From an uncultured Rubrobacteraceae bacterium (GTDB taxonomy: Bacteria > Actinomycetota > Rubrobacteria > Rubrobacterales > Rubrobacteraceae), in NCBI GenBank assembly GCA_964242955.1, contig CAXTDD010000002.1, positions 1-33,431 of the forward strand: a stretch of 33,431 nt of DNA, in the 5' to 3' direction. Under the pieces are notes generated by a model. That model saw only the letters and a program-made list of their open reading frames with translations. It ran no database searches and was not told the origin of the DNA. The first letter of the stretch is position 1; each line of letters opens with the position of its first letter. Both the position numbers and the translations under genes were made by a program. Below are positions 8,930 through 10,931 of the stretch, one piece after another.

Positions 8930-9149
8930 CCGGCACGCTTGGCGCCATGAAGTTAGATTAGAAGTTCTGTCTTCCCTTCCTACGCTGGCTCCTTCCGAGC
9001 GTTTCGCAACCGAGCGGGGCAGTTGCTTGTGTCGGAAAGGCTTGATTCGCGAGCAAAGGACTGCTCCCCTCCAGGCCCCGCTGCAGCTTCACCGGATCGT
9101 AGCCCGCGTCGAAGACGAACAGGGGAGCGGTCCTCCTTGTATCTTGGTT

Positions 9150-9330
9150 TTGGTCGTAAACTGCGGCCGTGGAGGGCGCGGCAGACCGATGCCTCCTTGG
9201 TCCGGGCTCTTCGCTCGAAGACCGCAAGAAAGCACGGGTCGTCGCGCCCGGTCCTTTGGTGGAGCCCGAACGGTTGCCGGGGCCGCCGGCGTGGTAGCCG
9301 GCGAGCCCGTATCCGCAAGGTCGGGCCACG
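9150..9330 (+). ncRNA. IS110 bridge RNA (target-binding and donor-binding loops); ends approximate
   Basis: Stem 9174-9187/9237-9249 encloses ATGCCTCCT (9189-9197) and AAGAAAG (9226-9232). Stem GCCCGA/TCGGGC (9264-9269/9321-9326) encloses ACGGTTGC (9270-9277) and CAAG (9316-9319). These match the target GGTCCTC-CT-TTCTT and the donor ACGGTTG-CT-TGTAT. Confidence 0.88.
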
Positions 9331-9349
9331 ACGAGGAAGGAGAAGGCGG

Positions 9350-10306
9350 ATGAGCCCCATCCCGGAAGAGGTCCACGTCGGCATAGTCGTCTCCAAGGCG
9401 CGCCTCGACGTCTCCGTGATGCCGGAAGGTTCGACCCTCGCGGTGACCAACGACCGGGCGGGCATCGACGAGCTCCTCGAGCTCCTCGATCGGTTGCGCC
9501 CCGAGTTGGTCGTGATGGAGGCCAGCGGCAAGTACGAGCGCCCCGCGGCTGCGGCCATCGCGGCCCGTGGGCTCGCCGTCGCCGTCGTCAACCCCCGCCA
9601 GGCGAGGGACTTCGCGAAAGCCACGGGCCGGCTCGCCAAGACCGACCGGATCGACGCGGAGATCCTCGCCCGCTTCGCAGGGGCCGTGGGCCCCCGCCCG
9701 AGCGTCATGCCCGACGAGGAAGCCCGCCTCTTGCAGGCGATCCTCGCCAGGAGGCGCCAGCTGCTGGAGATGCTCGTCGCCGAGAAGAACCGCCTCCAGA
9801 TGGCGCCCGATCCGGTCGCGAAGCGCATCCGCGCCCACACCAAATGGCTCGAGAAGGAGCTCTCCCGCACCGACGGGGAGCTCGACGAGGCCGTCGAAGC
9901 GAACACCGCCTTCAAGGAGAACGAGGCGCTGTTGAGGAGCGTGCCGGGCGTGGGCCCGGTCCTGGCGCGGACCCTCCTGGCCGAGCTGCCCGAGCTCGGC
10001 GCCATCACCCACAGGCGCCTCTCGGCCCTGGTCGGGGTGGCCCCCTTCAACCGCGACTCCGGCAAGCTGCGCGGCAAGCGGGAGGTGTGGGGTGGGAGGG
10101 CGCCGGTGAGGGCGACGCTGTACATGGGGGCGTTGGTCGCCACCCGGTACAACCCGATCCTCAAGGAGTTCTACGGACGGCTGCTTTCGGCGGGCAAGCC
10201 CAAGAAGGTGGCCCTGGTGGCGTGCATGAGGAAGCTGCTCTCGATCCTCAACGCCGTGATGCGGGACCGCACCCCCTACCATCCTACTCACCTCCTAACC
10301 CCTTGA
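9350..10306 (+). CDS. IS110-family recombinase/transposase (first catalytic Asp replaced by Val)
   Basis: ATG 9350 after GAGGAAGGAG. Motifs VGIVVSK (consensus GIDVSK), VMEASG, KTDRIDA, SVPGVG, RDSGK and [12 protein letters not shown]. Confidence 0.92.
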
Positions 10307-10931
10307 CTTCCAAGACGGTTGCTTTCTTCGGGCGACCGGCGCGAGAACGCCTTGCCCTGCTCGGCGGCCACCCCGTTGGCGTCTCGGGCGGGGTGAACGC
10401 GCGTGACGTGCACCGGAGCGGTCCAGCTCTCGCGGACGAAGTTGAGCCGGGCGACGAACTGGTAAGCCCATCTTGTCACGATGGGCTGGCCGGAGGAGTG
10501 GCGGGAGGGGTGGTAGTAGAAGCCGCGCTCGGGGCTCGTCTCGGCATCGCAACGGGCCCACACGCTCGCGTCCATGGCAAAGACGGGCGGCCCGTTCTCG
10601 GCTTCGGCAAACGGGACCCGGGCGAGCAGCCTGCGTAGGGCCTCGGCGTCTGTGGCCCCGTGCGCCAAAGCGGCGCAGAGGCTGCCCCACCCGCGGCGAT
10701 GGGAAGCCGGGAGGCTGAGGCGGACGGGGGAAGGGACGGCATCCGCAGCGAGGAGGGCGTCGGTGAGCTCGAAGAGGGCGTCGGCCCTGCGGTCGAGGCA
10801 CCCGTACAAGGAGTGACGGAAGGAGCGAAAGGCGCGAAGAGCATCGAAGCTTTCCATGGTGCAACCACCATGCACCCGCTCGCATCGTCCCGCATCCTTC
10901 AACCGCCAGCACAGTTAAAACGCAAGCTAAG

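Follow-up and report, generated by a model that had tools for sequence, protein, structure and literature searches.

The window, the whole stretch of 33,431 nucleotides analysed from an uncultured Rubrobacteraceae bacterium, contains an exopolysaccharide island with many mobile elements. Its positions 1540–2445, 20679–22199, 22311–28995 and 5026–8929 together hold IS5-like and DDE_3 transposases, two beta-helix proteins and a glycosyltransferase cluster, in which three GT4 genes accompany an O-antigen ligase and a flippase. An IS110 element lies between two CT cores at 9136–10323 (Table 1). It has the end architecture of the IS110 group, with a CT core at both junctions and no long terminal repeats, and its non-coding ends measure 212 nt (left) and 17 nt (right). 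The recombinase matches PF01548 (E 1e-23) and PF02371 (E 4e-18) and is related to IS621/ISCro4 (PDB 8wt6 and 9t56; E 2e-40 and 2e-42). Guides are found in the left end and not, as in the IS1111 group, in a long right end with sub-terminal inverted repeats.

An initial annotation, made from the letters alone, had read GGTCCTC-CT-TTCTT as the pre-insertion site and ACGGTTG-CT-TGTAT as the circle junction, and had placed the insertion in a Shine-Dalgarno (SD)-like string within another transposase. All of these letters were recovered, and in-silico removal of the element restored the minus-strand frame of an IS701-like transposase; the site is not a ribosome-binding site (RBS).

In the window copy the first catalytic DEDD residue is Val, not Asp (base 9387). 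This base is T in the window and A in the contigs of 4/4 sequencing runs; among 102 distinct relatives, the residue is Asp in 94, Asn in 1 and unparsed in 6. The clade described below thus fits an intact DEDD + Ser catalytic set whereas the window copy does not, and because its first DEDD Asp is Val it is probably catalytically dead. In PMC11208160, a mutant changed at four D/E residues serves as the inactive control. No second full copy was found in this genome's assembly (68% complete), only the ends of related elements (C432:2900–3411, C450:1–60, C117:6835–6900, C552:2716–2758 and C152:6226–6272). The end on C432 bears a different guide, ATGGCATTCT, and the left junction on C450 comes after a plus-strand stop codon, not an RBS.

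Table 1. Features of the IS110 element and its surroundings (window coordinates).
Feature	Position	Strand	Remarks
IS701-like remnant, short 3' continuation	9061..9135	-	truncated near 9061; loose ends 9061–9063
Antisense ORF, register of recombinase codons	9089..10291	-	GTG 10291 (400 aa) or ATG 10282 (397 aa); no Pfam match
Left target flank GGTCCTC	9129..9135	+	IS701-remnant DNA; letters read at site
Rebuilt SD-like AAGGAGG over left junction	9132..9138	-	anti-SD duplex -11.2 kcal/mol; no start codon after it here
Left-junction core CT	9136..9137	+	CT core dominant among relatives
-10-like TATCTT	9140..9145	+	predicted promoter; 17 nt from TTGACT in circular form only
Target-binding hairpin of predicted bridge RNA	9174..9249	+	consensus fold; z -2.9
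Left target guide ATGCCTCCT	9189..9197	+	6/9 match to left target; last 7 nt covary with targets
Right target guide AAGAAAG	9226..9232	+	7/7 complement
Donor-binding hairpin	9262..9327	+	consensus fold; z -2.9
Left donor guide ACGGTTGC	9270..9277	+	equals left donor 7-mer in 79/87 full elements
Discontinuous right donor guide AT..CAAG	9311..9319	+	CAAG 9316–9319; tracks donor variants
IS110 DEDD recombinase	9350..10306	+	318 aa; PF01548 then PF02371
SDs of antisense ORF	10288..10304	-	AAGGGG 10304–10299, 7 nt before GTG; AGGAGGTGA 10296–10288 before ATG 10282
-35-like TTGACT, right end	10303..10308	+	
Left donor ACGGTTG, then right core CT	10315..10323	+	donor 10315–10321; core 10322–10323
Right target flank TTCTT	10324..10328	+	
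IS701-like transposase (DDE_5), interrupted 5' part	10324..10857	-	

The predicted bridge RNA and its guides

We gathered 308 loci from a DNA search of 104 family genomes, two pattern searches and 40 fetched regions. A donor-loop pattern run on GTDB contigs gave about 180 stretches, of which 118 entered the set, and a target-loop pattern with CTCCT required, run on metagenomes, gave about 150, of which 120 entered; flanks and right guide formed part of none of the search patterns. A first hairpin search pattern was too loose, its controls being as frequent as its matches, and was rejected. The left junction could be parsed in 255 loci and the left guide in 253. After merging near-identical flanks and dropping flanks shorter than 40 nt, 206 sites remained; the guide ends in CTCCT at 118 of them and differs at the other 88. 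By host and right guide, three Chloroflexota elements among the 118 were set aside, leaving 115 in the clade. One locus derives from genome G018, which is flagged unpublished, and genomes G118, G196, G216 and G270 were used for distant comparisons only; none of the conclusions rests on these five.

The consensus of 32 left ends folds into two internal loops, with compensatory changes in 8 of 30 pairs. The fold was not significant for the whole left end (z -1.7) or for a truncated target hairpin (z +0.5), and Rfam gave no match. Matches of the left guide to target positions -5 to -1 numbered 120, 146, 179, 178 and 199 over the 206 sites (shuffled means 62, 67, 115, 100 and 175), and those of the right guide to positions +1 to +5 numbered 83, 80, 79, 78 and 76 over 88 sites (shuffled 33, 45, 36, 28 and 27). 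These counts were reached by 0/1000 shuffles, and the covariation from -5 to -1 and from +1 to +5 persisted when each distinct guide pair was counted once (66 and 65 rows). The guides of the predicted bridge RNA are thus shown by covariation to pair with 5+2+5 target bases. Positions -7 and -6 did not covary (41 and 56 matches versus 39.5 and 53 shuffled); hence the guides effectively read a 12-mer, GCCTC-CT-TTCTT, with which the window insertion site agrees at 11/12 positions. The 14-nt ideal target put forward initially was dropped for the same reason, its inner 5+2+5 bases standing and its outer two left bases not. On the donor side, the split right guide tracks the donors TGTAT/TGTGT/CGTAT in 98/98 cases. 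Two internal loops with guides covarying with both target and donor are the IS621-type layout that the initial annotation had recognized, and the target strings of its first loop as well as the donor strings of its second were found in place.

As far as PMC11208160 could be consulted, the element shares with IS621/ISCro4 the left-end bridge region, target and donor loops, the CT core, the CTTGTAT start, a discontinuous right donor guide and the DEDD + Ser recombinase. It differs from IS621 in the target, described there as an 11-nt REP sequence read by a 9-nt left and a 4-nt right guide and here as 5+2+5 bases that are SD-like, and in an antisense ORF under selection. Excision to a circle would join TTGACT and TATCTT at a spacing of 17 nt; by analogy with the same design in IS621, this is a candidate promoter that would drive both bridge RNA and recombinase. 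A scan of the linear form detected no promoter, and no minus-strand terminator was found. The contigs compared contained no circle joint, a negative that does not count as evidence. By eye and not by tool alignment, the closest labelled recombinase in the tree of PMC11208160 belongs to the IS492/ISGme8 cluster, for which no SD targeting was seen in the literature searched.

Rewriting of the guide upon insertion was considered and rejected, since 53 pairs of elements with 99–100% identity at different sites showed 0 guide differences. At one locus (L137) the bridge-RNA region is partly duplicated in tandem, and the joint directly follows the left donor guide, which looks to have been used as a donor site. 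Among Chloroflexota relatives with the same donor (L038, L053, L061, L075, L108, L111, L122, L125, L128, L130, L039, L050 and L067), the guides match the repeat CCCTCA(C/T)CC-CT-AACC(C/T) or CCCAACC-CT-CTCCC. This recurring repeat looks like a REP-type element. Eight copies of one IS110 (L353–L360, G159:C1) have common flanks, TGGTGCA(G/A)AC(C/G) on one side and (C/T)GTGGT(G/C)CA on the other, which were read as a conserved coding motif, possibly that of an IS256-type transposase. In another genome (G271; L315, L344–L346), the left end of a shorter IS110 form starts within that of a related element, present there in 6 copies; these are possibly truncated or nested copies.

Shine-Dalgarno-like targets across the clade

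SD guides form one clade among relatives with many other guides (FastTree support 0.895; IQ-TREE 100/98 for 13 rows including three guide departures). Insertion sites of this clade read CTC-CT-TTC, a string found within GATCACCTCCTTTCT, the 16S tail shared by 5/5 complete relatives. CTC-CT-TTC, as specified by the predicted bridge RNA, is the complement of the SD signal, and the equation of the encoded target with the 16S 3' tail made in the initial annotation was borne out. Comparisons within the clade show that the guide cores stay SD-like while the outer bases drift: the core CTCCT/GAAAG is kept among recombinases down to about 60% identity, and between elements 92–97% alike the outer guide bases differ by 17–50% and the core by 0–6% (these pairs being non-independent). 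In sister clades, guides vary freely. One clade member with an altered guide, GAAAACACT (L269–L271, genome G005), sits in a short tandem repeat, GCGAATAGCGAGTA….

To call start codons, we trained a codon model on this genome; its sensitivity was 85% (468/551 high-confidence starts). Among sites with 200 nt of flank, a predicted start codon was found on the opposite strand 4–17 nt from the core, with a mode at 10, in 52/101 sites with a CTCCT guide versus 3/75 with other guides. Within the family, 2/23 other-guide sites precede a predicted start; the remaining other-guide sites are mostly from Chloroflexota, to which the model is less suited. Random CT sites did so in 411/3000 cases. Start proximity was also seen at 16/24 sites found without a guide pattern, with a stricter caller (35/105 CTCCT-guide versus 0/87 other-guide sites) and for a plain ATG at offsets 6–16 (48/118 versus 10/88). 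Downstream ORFs contained Pfam families in 32/83 cases (from the 118 sites) versus 2/27 (from the 88). Of these 32 matches, 29 fit a gene N-terminus, including ndk, a TOBE protein, PTPS and SDRs, and three look internal to transposases.

Genomic CTCCTTTC sites precede a predicted start in 44/98 cases. Extra homing beyond the motif was considered and not supported: for matched 8-mers, 13 starts were observed versus 9.0 expected, of 28, and the stricter caller finds starts at 42/101 motif sites, to be compared with the rate given above. Because the rate at insertion sites is about the motif's own, RBS targeting here is a matter of preferred sequence and not of additional homing; roughly half of the clade sites are predicted RBSs because the motif is enriched at RBSs. 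The other half, the window site included, are not called RBSs. Twelve sites of this genome lie within one mismatch of the 12-mer of the window copy, and 6 of them are called as starts. The antisense homing to RBSs proposed initially, together with the enrichment at start codons that it implied, holds at the clade level; it does not hold for this locus, concerns about half of the sites and proceeds near the motif background. Insertion into a 16S 3' end was not seen at any of the 206 sites (rRNA is often unassembled).

Where at least 250 nt to the right of an RBS site could be inspected, a clearly coding stretch was present upstream on the strand of the host gene in 7/13 cases; therefore many sites are probably inside operons. 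At the left junction, AAG from the element and GAG(G) from the host restore an SD in sequence, as the initial annotation had suggested. Its strength is not kept, the mean duplex energy changing from -13.8 to -9.3 kcal/mol over 25 sites. One sequencing run yielded a contig, differing at 15 of 484 nt, whose loose end reads AAGGAGG-N7-ATG on the minus strand.

The antisense open reading frame

One feature absent from the first reading is an ORF that runs antisense over the element and brings its own SD and its own start codon. In the window it is intact through the recombinase and bridge region and stops 44 nt past the left junction, and the predicted SD duplexes reach -7.4 kcal/mol for AAGGGG and -17.4 kcal/mol for AGGAGGTGA. 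For the window copy by itself (GC3 0.93), chance often leaves such a frame open: this is the case in 164/450 host genes at GC3 0.90 and 95/163 at 0.95. Across the clade, an in-register start lies 32–33 nt inside the right core in 49/49 full SD-guide elements (43 ATG, the rest GTG), mostly preceded by AAGGAG or AAGGGG. The frame extends for at least 330 codons in 48/49 of these elements versus 1/10 family sisters and 0/28 Chloroflexota elements. The start coincides with a recombinase His codon, which is CAT in 43/49 elements versus 13/218 at other His places.

Codons that create antisense stops are nearly missing from 55 SD-guide recombinases (CTA 2/1776, TCA 0/515, TTA 2) compared with 15 sister elements (CTA 26/516, TCA 6/118, TTA 5). 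This amounts to 4 antisense stops versus about 137 expected from sister rates, while other NNA codons occur at normal frequencies (4.5–19%). A column-wise count of stop-making codons agrees (1/54 and 0/29 versus 43/80, 13/35, 35/46 and 21/30). Together, these codon counts show that the open frame and its start are under selection.

The ends of the frame are variable. Among the 49 elements, it ends within 25 nt of the left junction in 22, earlier in the left end in 4 and in the CDS in 1; in the remaining 22 it reads through the left junction. Databases list such ORFs as hypothetical proteins of 356–526 aa. A host domain stands at the C-terminus in 2/6 deposited ORFs scanned, so that in-frame fusions to host genes exist. 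Fourfold-site divergence of SD-guide elements versus sisters was 0.29/0.33, 0.39/0.42, 0.42/0.54 and 0.47/0.50 in successive bins, and neither fourfold sites nor Pfam indicated protein-level constraint or a family. This sister-like divergence and the variable ends argue against the peptide sequence as the object of selection. Since the frame is kept open while synonymous sites are unconstrained, translation itself is likely to be selected. A selected frame at the left junction was considered and rejected: of 16 cases, 7 are fused, 3 overlap the start and 6 are out of frame, the expected fractions being 0.31, 0.19 and 0.44. C-richness of the antisense strand, as a sign of Rho loading, was no higher than in other-guide elements.

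SD guide and antisense ORF were gained once within the clade. Members of the clade with non-SD guides mostly carry antisense stops (4 in L006, 5 in L011, 5 in L014, 6 in L016 and 1 in L065), with two exceptions, L271 and L276, in which the guide has changed and no antisense stop is present. Among Chloroflexota recombinases with other guides, 13/32 also lack in-register stops in the CDS, and two single loci with no visible RBS target (L318 and L334) have 1 stop versus 6.1 and 5.1 expected. The proposed link between the two traits rests on one gain, a few partial losses and IS900.

Proposed mechanism, alternatives and relation to IS900

By pairing with 5+2+5 target bases, the guides would likely direct active relatives to insert backwards into RBSs; the window copy landed in an SD-like string of the IS701 remnant. 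An insertion in an RBS moves the start codon 1.2 kb away from its promoter or from the gene upstream, and untranslated RNA invites Rho-dependent polarity according to the accessible part of PMC12360218. The rho gene is present in 4/4 complete relatives and was not found in this genome's assembly, 68% complete. Host transcription may enter from the right end, where the element's SD would recruit ribosomes; after about 385 codons these would arrive close to the left junction or beyond it, and so come to lie by the rebuilt SD. Such continuous translation would keep polarity off the downstream host gene. On balance, and with moderate confidence, we favour this combination of SD-directed insertion with an antisense ORF that carries ribosomes over the element and prevents Rho-dependent polarity on the host gene.

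SD targeting could also be real and the antisense ORF serve the element's own control, through the stability of antisense RNA, repression of recombinase or bridge RNA, or an effect of the peptide on transposition. This is unlikely in our view, even if selection on the frame, the low number of stops in some elements with other targets and the deposition of the ORF by gene callers as a protein of 356–526 aa would all suit it. It is opposed by unconstrained fourfold sites, a C-terminus that is free and even host-fused, the lack of a Pfam family, and decay of the frame that goes with most guide departures. A more doubtful proposal is that the guides are not selected for RBSs and that a purine/pyrimidine-biased motif and survivor bias, gene-breaking insertions being lost, give the start-codon pattern. 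The observed rate is indeed near the motif background and several non-RBS sites are in other transposases. However, the core CTCCT/GAAAG is kept to about 60% identity while the outer guide bases evolve more quickly than the element does; the right guide was absent from the search patterns, and sister clades vary their guides freely. Moreover, an ORF with its own SD facing the host gene is unexpected under drift. Finally, targeting of a conserved site in IS701-family transposases, in the way that ISEc21 targets IS3 DDE codons (PMC11187229, seen in part), is barely credible: the window copy does lie within a few codons of FDAGY, a motif in the IS701-like gene, but uninterrupted IS701 relatives differ in letters at this place and the flanks of other sites are unrelated genes, a diversity that already contradicts it.

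Our preferred reading, in which the antisense ORF averts polarity, has to be set beside IS900, since RBS targeting by an IS110 element is not new. IS900 reportedly targets translation initiation signals, as the title of Doran et al. 1997 has it. In the part of PMC8141618 available, the target motif of IS900 in Mycobacterium avium subsp. paratuberculosis, CATGNNNNNNTCTCCTT, is an SD with start codon on the opposite strand, and hed is an antisense ORF over the element, of unknown function and described without its own RBS and start. Both systems thus share the IS110 family, an SD-type target in opposite orientation and a spanning antisense ORF. They differ in that the ORF described here has its own SD and start in 49/49 elements, and in that the IS900 motif includes the start codon whereas the present guide spells none and about half of its sites are RBSs.

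The recombinase studied here (about 318 aa) is distant from the IS900 clade, with 32% identity over 154 aa to an IS900-like locus of the phylum sample, L317, so called from its match to the 24-nt IS900 motif quoted in the accessible text of PMC8141618. L317 sits between AGGAG and ATG and has 0 antisense stops in 393 codons, with 2.7 expected. The present clade is nested among non-SD relatives behind a 100/100 branch, apart from L317. Because L317 is far from the clade in the tree, the two-part design probably arose at least twice.

We lean slightly towards regarding this IS110 lineage as a self-contained cistron: an anti-SD guide would aim it at gene joints, and a selected, sequence-free antisense ORF with its own SD would escort transcription and hand ribosomes to the rebuilt SD, a design that would have arisen independently in IS900. 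If so, the hed ORF, unexplained since 1997, would be an anti-polarity device, and the element would offer a natural design for near-silent RNA-guided insertion. A readable RNA guide is here linked to an abundant and universal target class. The purpose of hed-like ORFs is testable by one synonymous change in the recombinase, and the anti-polarity role, should it hold, would be a general, low-cost way for a mobile element to live inside operons. In that case, caution would also be due in annotation, where such ORFs are deposited as hypothetical proteins, some of them fused to host genes, and the clade would supply bridge recombinases that read 12 target bases.

The literature searched contained no paper explaining IS900 targeting by a bridge RNA. 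Subscription papers and some supplements aside, it held none joining bridge-RNA guides to SD targeting and, within the same coverage, none showing selection on such an antisense frame; nothing on SD targeting appeared in the available parts of PMC7823733 and bioRxiv 10.64898/2026.10.21.760802.

Two single loci were inspected by eye. In the folded left end of L317, CATGTTTTT and AAGGAGA face each other within a single hairpin. L325 (G190:C6), with 26% identity to the window recombinase, is apparently inserted in an RBS (AGGAGG-N5-ATG, minus strand), and its left end contains CATGGGAC and AAGGAGG, possible guides for the start codon and the SD.
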